Shown here one piece after another: positions 7,234-29,032 of a stretch of DNA of 64,000 bases. Where the stretch lies: positions 26,482 through 90,481 of the forward strand of contig CACWWC010000001.1 in NCBI GenBank assembly GCA_902764545.1, read 5' to 3'. Position 1 is the first letter of the stretch; every line of letters begins with the position of its first letter. The notes beneath the pieces were generated by a model. The model had not been told where the DNA came from, did not search any database, and was given only the letters and a program-made list of their open reading frames with translations. A program made the translations under genes and the position numbers. This DNA comes from an uncultured Erysipelotrichaceae bacterium. GTDB lineage: Bacteria > Bacillota_I > Bacilli_A > RF39 > UBA660.

Positions 7234-8827
7234 ATATGGTTGGATAAACCCCTGGGCCGATAGGTAATCCAATTATGTACCATAATACCACTAATAAAAT
7301 CCAGGCTAATGATATTATTAAGCAGTATGGTGAAATAATTTTGAGTGATTCTCTTATTGTATATGGTTTGTTTTTCTTTAAGTTATAAATATTTAAATAT
7401 CCAATATAAATTACAAATGAGGCAAGCAAAGGGGTAAATCCTTTTGTCATTGAATCTCCTGCTCTCATTACGATTTGCGCAAACTGTGGTGATATATTAG
7501 CTTGCATAAATGCTGGTACTATTACTGGTGAAAAAATCAACCATTTGCTTGCTGGTGATGTCAATACCAAATTTGATATAGCAATAAAAATTAGAGAAAT
7601 AACAATTAAAGGTATACCATTAAAGGATATTTTTGAAAGAAGGTTCGCAAGCCATGCGGTGATAATCAATCCAATGTTTGTTTTTCTAAAAACTGAAATA
7701 AATTGTGATACCACAAACATTAGAATAAAGATACTACCAAGGTTAGAAAACTTTTTGCTTGCTTTTTCTATAATATCTCTATCGTTTGTAATTGATTTGC
7801 TTCCTATTCCATATGCTACTCCTGCCAACATGAAAAACATTGATACTATAAATGTAAATCCATCTTGAAAATATGAATTTGGGCCAAAAAGTTGATTTAG
7901 GTATGTATTTTCTTTCATGTCTAGTAGCAGTCCCGACCATGGTAGGTGAGGTATTAATGAATATATAAAAAATAATAAAAATAATATTGAAATAATTAAA
8001 GCATATCTTAATCCTCTTTTTTCATACTTATCTCGTTCCATTTGTTTTTGTTCAGCTTCTTCAATTGTTAATGATTGGTATTTTTCAGTTGGAGATAAAT
8101 CCTCATCTCTTTTATACTTTCCTATTTTTGGAGCAATTATATTTTCAACTATTATTGTTCCAACTATCGATAATATGATTGTTGCAAATATTATAAATAT
8201 AAGATTAGATGTTAATGAAATGTGTGATGTTTCATCAATAAGTCTTGCGGCAATTTTTGTGTAGTTTATCAATGAAACTTCTGTAGAACCAACAAAAATT
8301 GAAATACTGTATCCAAATGATACTCCACAAAAAGCTGTTATTATTCCTAAAATTGGATTCCTGTCATTTATAAAATAAATTAACGCAATTAGTGGAATTA
8401 AAATAGCATATCCGACTTCATTTATTAGTGATGATACGATTGAAATAAAAATAATAATAAATGTAAATAAATATTTTGGTATTTTGCTAACATGCCTTCT
8501 TGTAAGCATTTCAATGAATCCTGTTCCTTCTGCCACTGTTAGCCCAATTAATGATAATAATAATGTACCTAATGGTGCAAAACTTAAAAAGTTTTTTGCA
8601 GAATTACTAATGATATATTTTATTCCATCAAATGAAAATAAGTTCTCTACAGTAATTAGCACTGGCTCTAATTCATTTGTATTAGCATTTATTGTATTGT
8701 ATGTTGCCTGCATTTGAAACAAGGACAATATTCCACTTAGCAGTACAATTAGAAATGTTAATCCAATAAAAACCGTTATCGGATGAAAATAAAACTTTTT
8801 TAATCTTAATTTTCCTGTTTCGTACAT
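7232..8827 (-). CDS. AbgT-family (p-aminobenzoyl-glutamate / antimetabolite) transporter
   Basis: 531 aa polytopic membrane protein. AKNFLSFAPLGTLLLSLIGLTVAEGTGFIEML and VGYAILIPLIALIYFINDRNPILGIITAFCGVSFGYS match conserved AbgT blocks from memory. Confidence 0.8.
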   Translation of the reverse strand: MYETGKLRLKKFYFHPITVFIGLTFLIVLLSGILSLFQMQATYNTINANTNELEPVLITVENLFSFDGIKYIISNSAKNFLSFAPLGTLLLSLIGLTVAEGTGFIEMLTRRHVSKIPKYLFTFIIIFISIVSSLINEVGYAILIPLIALIYFINDRNPILGIITAFCGVSFGYSISIFVGSTEVSLINYTKIAARLIDETSHISLTSNLIFIIFATIILSIVGTIIVENIIAPKIGKYKRDEDLSPTEKYQSLTIEEAEQKQMERDKYEKRGLRYALIISILFLLFFIYSLIPHLPWSGLLLDMKENTYLNQLFGPNSYFQDGFTFIVSMFFMLAGVAYGIGSKSITNDRDIIEKASKKFSNLGSIFILMFVVSQFISVFRKTNIGLIITAWLANLLSKISFNGIPLIVISLIFIAISNLVLTSPASKWLIFSPVIVPAFMQANISPQFAQIVMRAGDSMTKGFTPLLASFVIYIGYLNIYNLKKNKPYTIRESLKIISPYCLIISLAWILLVVLWYIIGLPIGPGVYPTI

Positions 8828-9829: not shown

Positions 9830-10750
9830 TTATCTTCCTACCTCGATGTTCATTTCTTCAAGTAATCTATTTAGGTCATTTCCATTTGCAAAGCTTATTT
9901 CTATTTTATTTTTTTTAATTACTACCCTTGTACCTAATTTTTCACTTATTTCTTCTTGAAGATACTGATATTCATTCTGAGTCTTTATTCTCGGTTTTTG
10001 AGGATTACTTTTGATAATTATTGGTTCCTGTGATAATTCTTCTAGTTTTCTAACACTTAGGCCTTCAGATATTACTTTCTCTTCTAATTCTCTTTGTTGT
10101 TCACTATTATCTATTTTGCTTAGTACTCTTGCATGTCCCATTGTTATTTTCTTTTCATTTACGTCTGTCTGAATGGTTGGTGGAAGTGTTAATAAACCCA
10201 ACATATTTGTAATGTGGCTTCTACTTTTTCCTAATCTTTTCGCAAGTTCTTCTTGTGTCAAAGATAATGTTTCTTGTAGTTTTTTATATGCTTGGGCTTC
10301 TTCTATTGCAGTTAAATTCTCTCTTTGAAGGTTTTCTAATAATGCAATTTCCATCATTTGAGTGTCATTGAAATCTCTTATTATTGCCGGAATTTCTGAT
10401 AATCCTGCTAATTTAGATGCTTTTACTCTTCTTTCTCCTGCAATTATTTCATAACCTTTGATAGATTTTTTGATAATAATTGGCTGAAAAACGCCGTGTT
10501 CTTTAATGGATTCTGCTAATTCTGATAATGCACTTTCGTCAAAAAACTTTCTAGGCTGATATGGATTACTCCTTAGTTCATTTATGTTCACCATAGTAAT
10601 TGCTTCTTTTGGTGTTTCATTAACAATCTTTTCTTCAACTGTACTATAATCCAATATTTCACTATTAAATAATTCTTCTAGTCCTTTACCCAAGGCTTTT
10701 CTTCTTGGGATTCCTGTCTCATTTACATTATTTGTTTCCATTTCTTTCAA
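9830..10750 (-). CDS. parB: Chromosome partitioning protein ParB/Spo0J
   Basis: 306 aa. GLGKGL-like KALGKGLEELF, ParB box NPYQPRKFFDE...EHGVFQPIIIK...YEIIAGERRVKASKLAG, and an HTH region. Immediately downstream of soj with a 23-nt overlap. Confidence 0.9.
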   Translation of the reverse strand: MKEMETNNVNETGIPRRKALGKGLEELFNSEILDYSTVEEKIVNETPKEAITMVNINELRSNPYQPRKFFDESALSELAESIKEHGVFQPIIIKKSIKGYEIIAGERRVKASKLAGLSEIPAIIRDFNDTQMMEIALLENLQRENLTAIEEAQAYKKLQETLSLTQEELAKRLGKSRSHITNMLGLLTLPPTIQTDVNEKKITMGHARVLSKIDNSEQQRELEEKVISEGLSVRKLEELSQEPIIIKSNPQKPRIKTQNEYQYLQEEISEKLGTRVVIKKNKIEISFANGNDLNRLLEEMNIEVGR

Positions 10751-11516
10751 TCACTTCCTTTGCTAGATTAATATATGCTTCTGAGCCTCTGCTTTTTGGA
10801 TCATATGCAATTATTGGTTCTCCATGTGATGGAGCTTCTGTTAATCTTACAAGTCTAGGTATTATTGTATTATAGACCTTTTCTTTAAAGAAACTTCTAA
10901 TATCCTCTACAACTTCAAACCCTAAGTTTGTCCTTGAATCCAACATTGTTAATAATACTCCTTCTATATCTAGTGTTGGATTTAGTGTTTTTTGTGCTAT
11001 CATTATTGTCTTTAACAATTGTGTTATTCCCTCTAATGCAAAAAATTCACATTGTACTGGAATTATTACTGAATTAGAGGCTGTTAGTGCATTTGTTGTT
11101 ATTACATCAAGTGAGGGAGGACAATCTATTATTATATAGTCAAAACTTTCTTTTATGTCTACTAAGCTATTTTTTAGTTGTTCTCCTTTTTTAAAGCCTT
11201 TTTCCTGTCTGCTTTTTTCTCCTAATTCATTACCAAGCCCGGCTAGGTTTATTGTTGACGGTACAACATAAAACTTTTTATACTTTGTTTTAACCATTGC
11301 TTCTGTAATGTTGCATTCACCGATTAACACATCATATATACTTTTTTCTATTTCTCCTTTATTTATTCCTACACCAGTAGTTGTATTACCTTGAGGATCT
11401 AAGTCTATTAAAAGTACTTTTTTACCTAATACTGCTAGTGATGCAGAAAGATTTATACTTGTTGTTGTCTTACCTACTCCACCTTTTTGATTTACTAATG
11501 ATATAACCTTTCCCAT
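10728..11516 (-). CDS. soj: Chromosome partitioning ATPase ParA/Soj
   Basis: 262 aa; deviant Walker A NQKGGVGKTTTSINL, DLDPQGN, IIDCPPSL. Confidence 0.92.
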   Translation of the reverse strand: MGKVISLVNQKGGVGKTTTSINLSASLAVLGKKVLLIDLDPQGNTTTGVGINKGEIEKSIYDVLIGECNITEAMVKTKYKKFYVVPSTINLAGLGNELGEKSRQEKGFKKGEQLKNSLVDIKESFDYIIIDCPPSLDVITTNALTASNSVIIPVQCEFFALEGITQLLKTIMIAQKTLNPTLDIEGVLLTMLDSRTNLGFEVVEDIRSFFKEKVYNTIIPRLVRLTEAPSHGEPIIAYDPKSRGSEAYINLAKEVIERNGNK

Positions 11517-20607: not shown

Positions 20608-20626
20608 AATTTTTAATTATAAACAA

Positions 20627-20716
20627 TTTTTCCACAACTTAAAATTATTTTATTAGTTTAAATATAAGGATTTTGTTATTTTTAAACAATTTCCACAGTA
20701 ATAATATAAATAACAA
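20627..20716. promoter_or_regulatory. dnaA-dnaN intergenic DnaA boxes with adjacent TAA-repeat run (incC/DUE-like part of oriC)
   Basis: ttttccaca at 20627-20635 and atttccaca at 20689-20697. The second is followed after one G by TAA TAA TAT AAA TAA (20699-20713), which resembles a DnaA-trio array. Confidence 0.5.
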
Positions 20717-21863: not shown

Positions 21864-22033
21864 AAAATATCCACAATAATTGTGGCTTTTTTTTCGCTTT
21901 TTATATTATTAATGAAATTTGTTGAAAAAAAAAGTAATTTTCTACAAATTTTGACAAAATTCTACATTTTTATTTGGTATTAATATTTGTGGAAGCCTTA
22001 CTTCGGCTTCCAAGAAGGGGGATTCAATTGAAA

Positions 22034-22480
22034 ATGAAGTATGAAATTAGTAAAGGTACTTTGGCTATTATTCCAAATGAAAAAAATAGTAGTCTGGTAT
22101 ATGAAGATGAGGAGAGGTATGTTGTAAATGAAAAACCATTTAATATCATGGACTCAAGTTGTAGATATTTTGGTAGTTCATATGAGGGAAGAAAAGAAGG
22201 CGCTAAAAGTATTTTAGGAGCAGAGTATAAAGTTCCAATTGTAGTAGAAGATTCTGAAAATCTAATTGTCTTTCCTACAACATCACCTTATGCAGATGAC
22301 TGTGCATGGATATCTTTAAGAAGGGTGCATAATATTTATAAAATAGATGCTAATAATAGTAGGGTAGTATTTGATAATAATAAAGAAATAATTGTACCAT
22401 GTTCTTTCAGAAGCCTTGAAAATCAGTTATCAAGAGCATCAAGACTTGATTTAGTACTTCGAAACAGAAAAAATAGTTAG
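22034..22480 (+). CDS. comK: ComK-family competence transcription factor
   Basis: Start re-called at ATG 22034 (AAGAAGGGGG upstream). SCRYFGSSYEGRKEGA, KVPIVVED, IVFPTTSP and CAWISL line up with B. subtilis ComK SCRFFGSSYAGRKAG, KPPIMVD, FLFPTLS and CGWIS (from memory). Confidence 0.8.
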   Translation: MKYEISKGTLAIIPNEKNSSLVYEDEERYVVNEKPFNIMDSSCRYFGSSYEGRKEGAKSILGAEYKVPIVVEDSENLIVFPTTSPYADDCAWISLRRVHNIYKIDANNSRVVFDNNKEIIVPCSFRSLENQLSRASRLDLVLRNRKNS

Positions 22481-25655: not shown

Positions 25656-28109
25656 ATGGATAGATTAGAAAAAAATAATATTGTACAAGAAGTGCAGGAC
25701 TCATTTTTAGAGTATTCCATGAGTGTTATTGTTGCACGTGCTCTTCCAGACTTAAGAGATGGATTAAAACCTGTTCATAGACGTATTTTATATTCGATGT
25801 ATGAATCTGGATATACTCCTGATAAACCTCATAAGAAGAGTGCAAGAATTGTTGGAGATGTTATGGGTAAATATCATCCTCATGGAGATTCTTCAATTTA
25901 TGAAGCTATGGTTAGGATGGCTCAGGATTTTTCATATAGATATATGTTGGTTGATGGACATGGAAATTTTGGTAATATTGAAGGATATGGTGCAGCAGCA
26001 ATGAGATATACCGAATCGCGTTTATCAAAAATTTCGTTAGAATTATTAAAAAATATTAATAAAGATACTGTTGATTTTATACCAAATTTTGATGAGAGTG
26101 AAAGAGAGCCCGAGGTTTTGCCATCAAGGTTTCCAAACATTTTGGTAAATGGTACGACAGGTATTGCAGTAGGAATGGCAACAAATATTCCACCACATAA
26201 TTTAAGTGAAGTAATTGACGGTTGTGTAGCTTATATTGACAATCAAGATATAGATTTAGATGAATTAATGAAATATATTAAAGGTCCTGATTTTCCTACG
26301 GGGGCAACAATTTTAGGTAATAGTGGTATTAGAAAAGCATATGAAACAGGAAGAGGAACAATAACAATAAGAAGTAAAGCAACAATAGAAGAAACGAATG
26401 GCAGACAATATATCATTATTGATGAAGTCCCTTATGGTGTTAATACATTAGAATTAAAAAATAAGGTTGCAGAACTTGTTCATAATAAAACAATTGAAGG
26501 TATTGCTGATTATCACTCAGATTTAAAAAATGGAATTAAAATCACTATTACATTAAAAAAAGATGCAAATGCGCAAGTTGTATTAAATAAATTGTATAAG
26601 CATACTCAATTTCAGACAACATATGGAATTATTTTCTTAATGTTAGATCAGGGAGTACCAAAAACATTAGGATTGAAAGATATAATCTCAAAATATATAG
26701 ATTATCAAAAAGAAGTAATTATTAGGAGAACAAAATTTGATCTTGATGTAGCTGAAAAGAGAGTTCATATTTTAGAAGGATTGAAGATTGCTTTAGATAA
26801 TATTGATGCTGTTATAAAAGTGATTAGGGGATCTAAATCAGATGAAGAAGCAAGGCAAGGATTAATAAATGGTTTCTCATTAACTGAAATACAAGCTAAT
26901 GCAATACTAGAAATGAGATTACGTCGTTTAACTGGTTTAGAGCGCGAAAAAATAGAAAATGAGCTTAATGACTTACTAAAATTAATTGATGATTTAAAAG
27001 CGATTTTAGCTAGCGATGAAAGGATATTAGAAGTAATTAAGAATGAATTGTTGGAAATTAAACAAAAATATGGAGATGAGAGAAGAACAAATATTGATAT
27101 GACTGCTATTGAATATATTGAAGATGAATCTCTTATACCAGAAGAAAATGTAATTATTAATTTAACAAAAAATGGTTATATAAAAAGATTGAGGACTGAT
27201 ACTTACAAAACTCAAAATAGAGGAGGAGTGGGAATTAAAGGTATGACCACAAATGAAGAAGACTTTGTGGAAAGAATTTTATCTATGAGTACACATGATT
27301 ATTTATTATTCTTTTCAAATAAGGGAAGAGTATATAGAATTAAGGGATATGAGGTTCCAGAGTTTTCTAGACAGTCAAAGGGTTTACCAATTGTAAATTT
27401 ATTACCTTTAGAGAAAGATGAGAACATTAGTTCGATATTAAGCGTCAAACCTAATGATGATTTTACTAAATATTTGCTATTTTGCACGAAAAAAGGAATT
27501 GTTAAAAGAACTGCTATTGAAGAGTTTGATAATATTAGAAAAGGTGGAAAAATAGCGATTGTTTTGAGAGATGATGATGAATTAATTAGTGTAAAAAAGA
27601 CCTGTGGAAAAAATGAGATTGTTATTGGTGCAAGTAATGGAAGAATGGTTAGGTTTGATGAAAATGAAATTCGTTGCATGGGAAGAAGTAGTTCTGGTGT
27701 TAAAGGTATAGAATTAGATGGAGCTATTGTTGTTGGTGCAGATGCTGTTGAATCTGGACATATGGTTTTAATTGTTACGGAGAATGGATATGGGAAGAAA
27801 TCTTTAATTGATGAATATAGATTAACGCATAGAGGAAGCAAAGGTGTTAAAGCATATAATGTTACTGAAAAGAATGGAGTAATGGTTTCTCTAAAATGTT
27901 TTAATCCAAATGCTGAATTAGACTTAATTATTATGACAGATAGTGGAATAATCATAAAATTACCATTAGAGCAAGTATCAACATTAAAAAGAGCAACGCA
28001 AGGAATTAGATTGATGAATCTAAAAGATGATCAAAGAGTTTCTACTGTTGCTTTAGTGGAAAAAGAGGATATTATTGAAAATACAGATGCTGATGATAAT
28101 AATTCTTGA
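25656..28109 (+). CDS. gyrA: DNA gyrase subunit A
   Basis: 817 aa. [19 protein letters not shown], the QRDR-like segment [17 protein letters not shown], the active-site AAMRYTE, and a beta-pinwheel C-terminal domain. Confidence 0.97.
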
Positions 28110-28124
28110 TTTATGAATAAAAAG

Positions 28125-28153
28125 CAAAGACTATTATTAGTCTTTGTTTTTTT
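28125..28153 (+). terminator. Rho-independent terminator of gyrA
   Basis: caaagacta (28125-28133), loop ttat, tagtctttg (28138-28146), then seven T. Confidence 0.8.
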
Positions 28154-28162
28154 ATAATTATA

Positions 28163-28178
28163 TGTTTCACGTGAAACT
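28163..28178. other. parS: parS centromere-like site 1
   Basis: TGTTTCACGTGAAACt matches 15 of 16 positions of the palindromic parS consensus TGTTNCACGTGAAACA. The inner 14 bp are a perfect palindrome. It is followed directly by the DnaA-box-like ttttccaca (28179-28187). Confidence 0.85.
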
Positions 28179-28241
28179 TTTTCCACAGTTTTTGTTATTA
28201 AATTTATATGAAGATTTAACTTATTTTAATTATACTTTTAA

Positions 28242-28250
28242 ATTTCCACA
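28242..28250 (+). promoter_or_regulatory. DnaA-box-like 9-mer
   Basis: atttccaca, 7 of 9 to TTATCCACA. It is the same variant as at 20689 and, in complement, the oriC box at 19050. Confidence 0.4.
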
Positions 28251-28610
28251 AAAATAGTATTTATTTTATTAATTAATTATTTTTCTTAAAGATATTATTT
28301 CAATTGTATTACTATATTAGACTTTTTTACATAATAAAAGCATAAACTTCAATAATTTAAAATTGTAAAATGATATTTTTTAAGTTTGGAGATTTAATTA
28401 TCTATTAGAAAAGACGTATAAGATGTTAGAAAATTATAAAAGTATTAACATTATTTTTAATTTTTAAGAATTAATAATTAATCACTTTTGTTAAGCTTAA
28501 AATATTCTTTATATAATAACTTAAATCCTAAAAAAGATTTAAAGTTTATTTATGATATAAATCTAAAAATAAAATTAAAATGAGTTTTGAATGATTACAA
28601 TAATGAAAAT

Positions 28611-28626
28611 TATTTCCCGGGAAATA
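28611..28626. other. Noc-binding site (NBS) palindrome 1
   Basis: TATTTCCCGGGAAATA is identical to the 16-bp B. subtilis NBS consensus (core ATTTCCCGGGAAAT). It is embedded in a 26-bp perfect palindrome at 28606-28631. Confidence 0.8.
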
Positions 28627-28673
28627 ATTTTTATTAATTAAAAATCACCCTATGTATATTATATTTTTTCAAA

Positions 28674-28723
28674 AAAATTATTTCCCAAAATTATTTCCCA
28701 AAATTATTTCCCGGGAAATAATT
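28674..28723. repeat. Three tandem 13-bp NBS half-site repeats, the last completing NBS palindrome 2
   Basis: aaaattatttccc x3 at 28674-28686, 28687-28699 and 28700-28712. The third runs into gggaaataatt, giving TATTTCCCGGGAAATA at 28705-28720 within a 22-bp palindrome (28702-28723). Confidence 0.8.
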
Positions 28724-28770
28724 CTTATTTATTTAAATGTATTAGTGATTTATAATTTTTAAATATTTAT

Positions 28771-28839
28771 TTTTCCACAATAATTGTGATTTTTTTTATG
28801 ATTGTTATTTGTTAAATTCTTAAATATATTTTATCCACA
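28771..28839. promoter_or_regulatory. DnaA boxes, including one perfect consensus box
   Basis: ttttccaca at 28771-28779 forms an inverted pair with tcacaatta (ccacaataattgtg). TTATCCACA at 28831-28839 is a 9 of 9 match to the consensus. Confidence 0.6.
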
Positions 28840-28877
28840 TTAATTGATTTGCTTTTAATATGGCTAATAAGTTGTAA

Positions 28878-28893
28878 TGTTTCACGTGAAACT
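28878..28893. other. parS: parS centromere-like site 2
   Basis: TGTTTCACGTGAAACt, identical to site 1, followed by ttttcaca. Together with flanks it forms a 24-26 bp direct repeat of the 28162-28187 element. Confidence 0.85.
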
Positions 28894-28942
28894 TTTCACA
28901 TTTTTTATTTACATTGATTTTTATTTATAGTAAAATATATTC

Positions 28943-29014
28943 GTGCAATAAAAGTGTCTGAAATAGGTCAGGATTGGAAAATAGCAGCCTTAAGGTCCAA
29001 CTTTTATGTGCACA
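28943..29014 (+). ncRNA. ffs: Small (4.5S-type) signal recognition particle RNA
   Basis: AGGUCAGGAUUGGAAAAUAGCAGCC matches the SRP domain IV core (E. coli GGUCAGGUCCGGAAGGAAGCAGCC), including the GGAA tetraloop. Closing stem gtgcaataaaagt / acttttatgtgcac. Upstream TTGATT...TAAAAT promoter-like boxes and a downstream T-run. Confidence 0.75.
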
Positions 29015-29032
29015 TTTTTATTTGGAGGAAAT

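Follow-up and report, generated by a model that had tools for sequence, protein, structure and literature searches.

INTRODUCTION

ParB and Noc are a textbook pair of paralogues that share one DNA-binding fold but differ in specificity and in task, which is segregation for ParB and division control for Noc, and in model organisms both proteins act at separate, scattered sites. The parS sites of Bacillus subtilis are isolated 16-mers that are distributed over a large origin domain, while sopC of the F plasmid consists of 12 units of 43 bp, each with an inverted repeat bound by SopB. DnaA boxes were reportedly found at the Caulobacter centromere by Mera et al. in 2014. Here, we analysed the region around the origin in a low-GC representative of the Bacilli, an uncultured Erysipelotrichaceae bacterium, in a stretch of 64,000 nt (contig CACWWC010000001.1, positions 26,482 to 90,481; hereafter the window). 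We describe a spacer of 822 bp (28110-28931) that separates the gyrA stop codon (28109) from the start of the signal recognition particle (SRP) RNA gene (28932) and contains parS sites together with Noc-binding sites (NBS).

The NBS known so far occur singly and are dispersed across the origin-proximal half to two-thirds of the chromosome, e.g. at 41 loci in Staphylococcus aureus (PMC5540599; PMC8429893), and canonical Noc needs an N-terminal membrane-targeting helix, along with helix alpha-2, for nucleoid occlusion (PMC8429893). Site choice depends on few residues: ParB invariably has R173 and G201, the specificity is switched to NBS by Q173 and R201, and NBS binding is already permitted by one lysine, at position 179 or 184 (PMC7383237). 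An earlier inspection of the window, which we refer to as the original prediction, had proposed that the spacer is a hub of chromosome organisation for ParB and Noc. Our analysis supports this proposal, since parS and NBS share the locus in nearly all relatives and the genes for both predicted binders lie at a distance of 15-18 kb.

RESULTS

Two parS and two NBS sites lie in the spacer after gyrA

We searched for the 16-bp palindrome TGTTNCACGTGAAACA of parS with at most two mismatches and found only the sites at 28163 and 28878 in the 64 kb, where 0.01 would be expected by chance (shuffles). The NBS palindrome ATTTCCCGGGAAAT (16-bp form TATTTCCCGGGAAATA) is present in two perfect copies at a chance expectation of 0.00 (shuffles), and tolerating three mismatches revealed no further NBS in the 64 kb. 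The sites follow each other in the order parS-NBS-NBS-parS, with 94 bp from NBS-1 to NBS-2 and 173 bp from NBS-2 to parS-2 (Table 1). A head-to-tail array of the sopC type is absent from the window, in which the threefold 13-bp repeat of NBS half-sites is the sole tandem element. The elements listed in the original prediction were found in place, apart from the second arm of a supposed inverted DnaA-box pair and a box following parS-2, both of which are degenerate.

Contigs of the same species are ~99% identical across the spacer. Both parS sites, NBS-2 and the DnaA boxes are unchanged among them, and NBS-2 is identical in 6/6 sequences. The copy number of the 13-bp half-site unit ranges from 3 to 5 within the species, with 3 units in the window and 5 in the conspecific contig L083. 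NBS-1 occurs in variant form as TTTCCCGCGAAAT in the conspecific contigs L082 and L084 and as TTTCACGGGAAAT in L083, where the left half resembles a parS half-site at the discriminating position.

Both site types are conserved at the same locus in relatives

Is the joint occurrence of parS and NBS a common feature of this locus? By a scan based on GyrA we collected 80 species-level relatives (designated by L numbers) with 77-94% GyrA identity, which are uncultured gut or rumen 'Bacilli' labelled Erysipelotrichaceae, Mollicutes or Candidatus Onthousia/Faecimonas. We regarded a spacer as complete if the contig was continuous from gyrA to the SRP RNA gene, tadA and dnaX (n = 57). The spacers (51 kb) contain 261 parS sites and the flanks (902 kb) only 8, i.e. 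the sites are ~570-fold denser in the spacers; for NBS, the counts are 193 and 24, respectively, which corresponds to a ~140-fold higher density. Both types occur in 52 of the 57 complete spacers, so that the comparison of synteny, which had been proposed as a check on the hub, finds the combination kept at the homologous locus. Orphan NBS half-sites are likewise enriched, with 0.74 per kb in the relatives' spacers versus 0.054 per kb. The sites counted outside the spacers lie in the tadA-dnaX gap or at one recurrent position inside dnaX, and at more than 2.5 kb from the hub we found no parS and six NBS in 872 kb (~200 loci). The recurrent NBS inside dnaX is located ~1.65-2.2 kb past the SRP RNA start in L026, L028, L030, L031, L032, L036, L045, L063, L064, L069, L070, L073 and L080; the window has none there.

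Similarity between the spacer of the window and those of the relatives is restricted to the parS and NBS zones. Across species the 16-mers are near-perfect, while the filler sequence and the period of the arrays (56 to 136 bp) vary. In many species, parS and NBS together form the units of a regular tandem array, for example 8+8 sites at 64 bp in L023, 9+9 at 75 bp in L033, 6+6 at 105 bp in L011 and 6+6 at ~125 bp in L056. The closest relative, L001 (94% GyrA identity), has a spacer of 167 bp that consists of parS, NBS, a half-site and parS. We also scanned metagenome contigs, independently of the genomes, for an NBS followed by parS within 4-34 nt and obtained at least 120 contigs. Among the matches listed, gyrA, tadA or dnaX adjoins the NBS-parS pair in 116 of 120 contigs, and the other four are short.

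The spacer had been thought to replace an rRNA operon. This view did not survive the comparison, as the adjacency of gyrA, SRP RNA gene, tadA and dnaX is normal in the clade and no relative has an rRNA operon there. Indeed, such an operon cannot fit, because the complete spacers measure 107-2552 bp. The remaining 23 of the 80 contigs end inside or at the spacer, and no rRNA was found at the contig ends of 14 relatives, 12 of them broken after gyrA. The tandem arrays are probably a systematic breakpoint of metagenome-assembled genomes (MAGs) in the clade, just after gyrA. In one of these 12, L046, a group II intron (8543-8713; Rfam RF02001, 136 bits) occupies the usual place of the array just after gyrA, and the 283 bp of L046 sequence there contained neither parS nor NBS.

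parS and NBS tend to alternate with half-turn helical phasing in relatives

Neighbouring sites in the relatives' spacers are preferentially of different type: 284 of 368 adjacencies join a parS to an NBS, as compared to 192 +/- 9 in shuffles (maximum 219). The distances between the centres of neighbouring parS and NBS sites peak at 26, 36, 47-48, 58, 68 and 78 bp. They are best described by a period of 10.7-10.8 bp and a phase of 0.48-0.50 turn, i.e. the centres are (n+1/2) turns apart and thus on opposite sides of the helix. In Rayleigh tests, p was ~1e-5 for the genomes, 2e-14 for the metagenomes and ~1e-6 when one random distance per locus was used. The phasing is seen regardless of whether the NBS or the parS comes first, as well as at distances of 45-120 bp, and a jitter of +/-5 bp abolishes the signal. 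For sites of the same type (parS-parS and NBS-NBS), a periodicity of whole turns is only weakly evident (R 0.13-0.16; p 0.17 and 0.003), and we do not rely on it. In the full-text literature, our coverage of which was incomplete, we came across no account of parS/NBS arrays that alternate or are phased.

A ParB and a Noc-like paralogue are encoded nearby

The window encodes two ParB-family proteins upstream of dnaA (Table 1). For the 306-aa ParB, which reads GKSR...N-M...LL-T...M-G-HAR, the best alignment is to Spo0J of B. subtilis, while the 402-aa paralogue aligns best to the solved Noc structures and carries the cytidine triphosphate (CTP)-binding motifs GERRxxA and ENLQR. In the window and in one relative, the noc-like gene has the canonical rsmG-noc-soj-parB position. 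The combination QKxR and a short N-terminus were found in 120/120 closest Noc-like homologues (394-515 aa). By RxxG in ParB and QKSR in the Noc-like protein, each site type can be matched with a predicted cognate binder whose gene is 15-18 kb distant.

The Noc-like protein starts 18 aa ahead of the PNRFQPR motif, and its ATG is immediately preceded by a stop codon and a ribosome-binding site. In the alignment to the solved Noc chains, its residues 3 and 4 correspond to residues 22 and 25, and its AlphaFold2 model opens with strand beta-1 at residue 7. With this short N-terminus, the protein has neither the N-terminal amphipathic helix of 10 aa for membrane targeting nor helix alpha-2. A Noc without the N-terminal helix was not found reported in the full-text literature, within our incomplete coverage. 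Between the DNA-binding and the dimerisation domains lies a linker of 155 aa that is disordered in the AlphaFold2 prediction and contains motifs conserved across 120 homologues (NYGKVxIAPP, KFxNYGE, LDxLLN, TPAEKIVK and DYFxxPDL).

DnaA boxes accompany parS in one subclade, and the probable origin lies at ~19.0 kb

The spacer of the window contains four TCCACA cores, all on the plus strand, versus 0.06 expected from its composition; they amount to one perfect DnaA box, two with one mismatch and one weak box. The inverted DnaA-box pair proposed at 28771-28788 does not hold, as its second arm (28780-28790), a 5-bp palindrome with a T run behind it, is not a credible box. For the composite of parS and box proposed at 28878-28900, parS-2 is sound with 15/16 matches, while the box that follows is degenerate (TTTTCACAT). 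A near-twin of the palindrome with its T run, TCCACAATAATTGTGG, occurs after dnaN (21869-21884, region 21867-21890), the version in the spacer being TCCACAATAATTGTGA (28771-28798). Because of this twin, the palindrome at 28771-28790 may be a small terminator-like hairpin that perhaps doubles as a DnaA box.

In the relatives, 34 of the 261 parS sites are followed by a TTATCCACA-like DnaA box 0-6 nt downstream, always in one orientation and never (0) mirrored. This composite is confined to the subclade of the window (L003, L004, L005, L007, L012, L020, L026 and L029), and the window itself contains one such composite at 28163-28187 and a decayed one at 28878-28902. Perfect DnaA boxes are ~10-fold enriched in the relatives' spacers, with 0.76 per kb versus 0.073 per kb outside. 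However, a perfect box is present in only 18/57 complete spacers, for which reason DnaA appears to be a lineage-restricted addition outside the conserved core of the locus. The notion of DnaA as a third system is partly supported: the box abutting parS is conserved in the subclade and boxes are enriched, but most complete spacers have no perfect box.

The cumulative GC skew reaches its lowest point at 19.0 kb, the skew is positive from there through the spacer (28-29 kb) and beyond, and the gene orientation likewise switches at 19 kb. Together with the cluster of six boxes at the skew minimum (Table 1), this places the origin ~9 kb to the left of the spacer, which is itself no origin: neither a switch of skew or strand nor a conserved AT-rich unwinding element was found there. 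The gap between dnaA and dnaN (20608-20672) is only ~65 bp long and has one near-consensus box. With the DnaA-box cluster upstream of dnaA, the layout of the origin is unlike the bipartite oriC of B. subtilis. Across the 80 relatives, 15 perfect DnaA boxes lie in the last ~1 kb of the gyrA coding sequence; in the window, TGTGGAAAA is found there at 27603. This element in the 3' part of gyrA may be a conserved intragenic box.

Composition and coding content of the spacer

The spacer has a GC content of 16.3%, compared with 28.0% for the 64-kb window. As originally described, it is free of open reading frames (ORFs) of at least 60 aa, the longest wholly internal ORF having 37 aa, and no tRNA or rRNA was found in a search of the 64-kb window. 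The central stretch, said to have almost no G or C, is indeed very AT-rich, but its 350 bp contain 48 G+C (13.7%). A hidden small protein gene or small RNA in this region was rejected: the core (28251-28600) has no internal ORF longer than 31 aa. A permissive Rfam search of the spacer for small RNAs returned the SRP RNA as the sole match. For 28290-28500, similarity was found in 0/80 relatives, and the closest relative L001 lacks the AT-rich core.

An ORF of 36 aa (28652-28762) was rejected as a gene because it spans the half-site repeat, and its frame would shift with the two extra 13-bp units (26 bp) that L083 has there. A mobile-element source was rejected as well, since BLAST of the window spacer against phages and of one relative's array against plasmids gave no match. 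The scan for terminators recovered the stem at 28125-28153 after gyrA and assigned it to the minus strand. At the other end of the spacer, the promoter-like hexamers of the SRP RNA gene sit directly 3' of parS-2. The genes of the window are arranged on the minus strand as mscS, parB, soj, noc-like, rsmG, mnmG, mnmE, jag, yidC and rnpA, and on the plus strand as dnaA, dnaN, comK, recF, gyrB, gyrA, the spacer, SRP RNA, tadA, dnaX, ybaB and recR. The ComK-family gene (21974-22480, plus strand; Pfam PF06338, 151 bits) lies between dnaN and recF in an otherwise canonical dnaA-dnaN-recF-gyrB-gyrA block.

Table 1. Features of the spacer and of the surrounding origin region, in window coordinates
Feature	Position	Strand	Remarks
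ParB/Spo0J, 306 aa	9830..10750	-	specificity residues R-M-T-G (RxxG, parS type); N-terminal LGKGL motif
Soj/ParA ATPase	10728..11516	-	
Noc-like ParB paralogue, 402 aa	11607..12815	-	specificity residues Q-K-S-R (NBS type)
Probable oriC cluster, six TGTGGAwww boxes, upstream of dnaA	19014..19132	-	at GC-skew minimum
gyrA terminator-like hairpin (CAAAGACTA...TAGTCTTTG), then T run	28125..28153	+	left spacer edge; sequence inspection
parS-1 TGTTTCACGTGAAACT	28163..28178	.	15/16 to consensus TGTTNCACGTGAAACA
DnaA box TTTTCCACA, 8/9	28179..28187	+	abuts parS-1 (composite parS+DnaA-box module)
Weak DnaA-like box ATTTCCACA, 7/9	28242..28250	+	
AT-rich filler, 13.7% GC (48 G+C)	28251..28600	.	composition; unconserved
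NBS-1 TATTTCCCGGGAAATA	28611..28626	.	perfect 16-mer
Three tandem 13-bp units AAAATTATTTCCC, NBS half-sites	28674..28712	+	last unit is left half of NBS-2
NBS-2 TATTTCCCGGGAAATA	28705..28720	.	perfect 16-mer
DnaA box TTTTCCACA, 8/9, with short palindrome and T run	28771..28790	+	
Perfect DnaA box TTATCCACA	28831..28839	+	one of only two perfect boxes in 64 kb
parS-2 TGTTTCACGTGAAACT	28878..28893	.	15/16; repeat partner (D1) of parS-1
Decayed DnaA box TTTTCACAT after parS-2	28894..28902		
Promoter-like hexamers for SRP RNA gene, TTTACA-17-TAAAAT and TTGATT-16-TATATT	28908..28941	+	consensus match only
SRP (4.5S-type) RNA gene	28932..29029	+	Rfam RF00169, 57.1 bits; right spacer edge

DISCUSSION

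Based on the conservation, alternation and phasing of the sites and on the specificity residues and architecture of the two proteins, we consider it probable, at roughly 70%, that the spacer between gyrA and the SRP RNA gene serves as a dedicated platform close to the origin, ~9 kb to the right of oriC, on which two CTP-dependent clamps, ParB and its Noc-like paralogue, are loaded. From the sequences we infer that ParB would nucleate at the parS sites and the Noc-like paralogue at the NBS sites, and that both clamps would then close and slide onto the adjacent DNA, the oriC region included. In most of the clade, ParB and Noc-like dimers would sit on opposite faces of the DNA and occupy one short stretch together. 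It is the alternation of the sites at half-turn phasing that points to a simultaneous occupancy and to a relevance of the relative geometry. ParB would do its usual work in Soj control and SMC loading. In the subclade of the window, DnaA would also join the complex by way of the box abutting each parS. The window itself appears to be a sparse, partly decayed form of the array with AT-rich, non-conserved filler.

Since the canonical N-terminal helix is not available to the Noc-like protein for membrane binding, the protein would act on some partner through the conserved motifs of its disordered linker. The missing helix and the conserved motifs suggest that it does something other than classical membrane-based nucleoid occlusion. 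We speculate, tentatively and with clearly less confidence than for the loading platform as such, that Noc was repurposed as a second centromere protein. Co-loaded with ParB on opposite faces of the phased array, it might form a composite two-clamp complex for partition or origin organisation, in which the linker motifs recruit a partner that ParB cannot recruit and DnaA is docked by parS in one subclade.

Several observations weigh against the dual loading platform. The window has just 2+2 sites, which are widely separated, and the tight phased layout is inferred from the relatives. NBS-1 carries a 1-nt change in 3/5 conspecific contigs, from which it follows that not every site is strongly constrained. 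Dispersed NBS exist, six in 872 kb at more than 2.5 kb from the main cluster; the hub thus need not be the sole Noc site, and an ordinary role of Noc at scattered sites is also possible. The Noc-like protein might reach the membrane via another segment. The statistics of the phasing treat related loci as independent, which makes the p-values optimistic, although the two independent collections, genomes and metagenomes, agree on the phasing despite the kinship of the loci. Finally, tandem arrays are able to grow by slippage without selection.

The last point could be taken further, in that the arrays might be a neutral or selfish expansion of tandem repeats in a tolerant gap, with no function past one ancestral parS. 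The copy number indeed varies between species and, for the 13-bp unit with its 3 or 5 copies, within a species, ~23 assemblies break inside the spacer, and one NBS is polymorphic. Such an expansion is nevertheless hard to reconcile with two 16-mers that are near-perfect in more than 100 species amid unalignable filler, with independent array periods that all retain both site types and with a pairing that is locus-specific in the independent metagenome sample. Slippage alone would not yield half-turn phasing either, and we regard a neutral origin as very improbable. The sites could also mainly be operators, at which ParB-family clamps regulate the transcription of SRP RNA, tadA and dnaX in the manner of KorB. 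They adjoin these genes throughout, parS-2 precedes the SRP promoter-like hexamers by ~15 bp, some relatives carry the array between tadA and dnaX, and an NBS recurs within dnaX. Yet up to 9+9 sites over 0.5-2.5 kb exceed the needs of an operator, and the position of the sites relative to the promoter varies among species. In addition, chromosomal ParB and Noc are not known to act as gene-specific regulators, and overall a regulation of this kind seems unlikely to us.

Two further explanations put DnaA at the centre. In one of them, the spacer would mainly be an auxiliary DnaA-box cluster, of the datA type or of the DnaA-box cluster (DBC) type of B. subtilis, that titrates or regulates DnaA, with parS and NBS being incidental. 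The four plus-strand TCCACA cores, one of them in a perfect box, against 0.06 expected, the density of perfect boxes in the spacers (0.76 versus 0.073 per kb), the fixed orientation of the parS+box composite in the subclade and the precedent of DnaA boxes at the Caulobacter centromere (PMC6399470) are in line with such a function. This reading is improbable in view of the 18/57 complete spacers that hold a perfect box, with many large arrays lacking any, and of the parS and NBS sites, which are far more constant and enriched; the number of boxes in the window is also modest next to the six-box cluster upstream of dnaA. The other possibility, raised in the original prediction, is that the spacer belongs to a split or second origin whose unwinding or bending element would be the AT-rich core. 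A core of 13.7% GC with DnaA boxes close by and dnaA in the vicinity would suit an origin. However, the skew has its minimum at 19.0 kb, where the six boxes lie, and stays positive through the spacer and beyond without any change there, and the gene orientation switches at 19 kb. The core moreover has no counterpart in the 80 relatives (28290-28500) and is missing from the 167-bp spacer of the closest one. The AT-rich core is not supported as an unwinding or bending element, and a split origin is extremely unlikely.

In summary, a lineage of uncultured small-genome gut and rumen Bacilli interleaves parS and NBS at one origin-proximal locus, with helical phasing and with a Noc that has no membrane anchor. 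These three properties together argue that the two clamps are directly coupled, be it physically or functionally, and that Noc has a role outside classical nucleoid occlusion. The arrays offer a natural substrate for in vitro studies of CTP-clamp loading from packed heterologous sites, of a mutual block or help between the clamps and of the partners of the Noc linker. On the practical side, they probably break MAG assemblies just after gyrA, where ~23/80 contigs end.

How does the locus compare with known systems? It shares with the Noc-NBS system of B. subtilis and S. aureus an identical 16-bp NBS, the rsmG-noc-soj-parB gene position, the specificity residues Q173, K179 and R201 and the CTP-binding motifs GERRxxA and ENLQR. 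In contrast to that system, the NBS are gathered at one locus and interleaved with parS, and the Noc-like protein lacks the N-terminal helix and alpha-2 and has a disordered insert of 155 aa. Like other chromosomal ParABS systems, this one has consensus parS near oriC and parA and parB upstream of dnaA, but the parS sites occur in compact, often tandem arrays at one intergenic locus and are intercalated at phased spacing with the sites of a second paralogue. The head-to-tail units of 56-136 bp in the relatives, each with a palindromic site for the ParB family, recall a centromere of the sopC type. However, each of these units holds two palindromes for two proteins, the arrays are chromosomal and without plasmid or phage similarity, and the window has no tandem array. 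With the boxes at the Caulobacter centromere and the oriC-proximal DnaA-box clusters of B. subtilis, the locus has in common a DnaA box beside parS in an origin-proximal place that is not the origin, whereas the box predicted here lies 0-6 nt from parS in one orientation and recurs with each parS in one subclade. parS, NBS, DnaA box, ParB and Noc are all known as elements, and it is in their arrangement that the locus differs.

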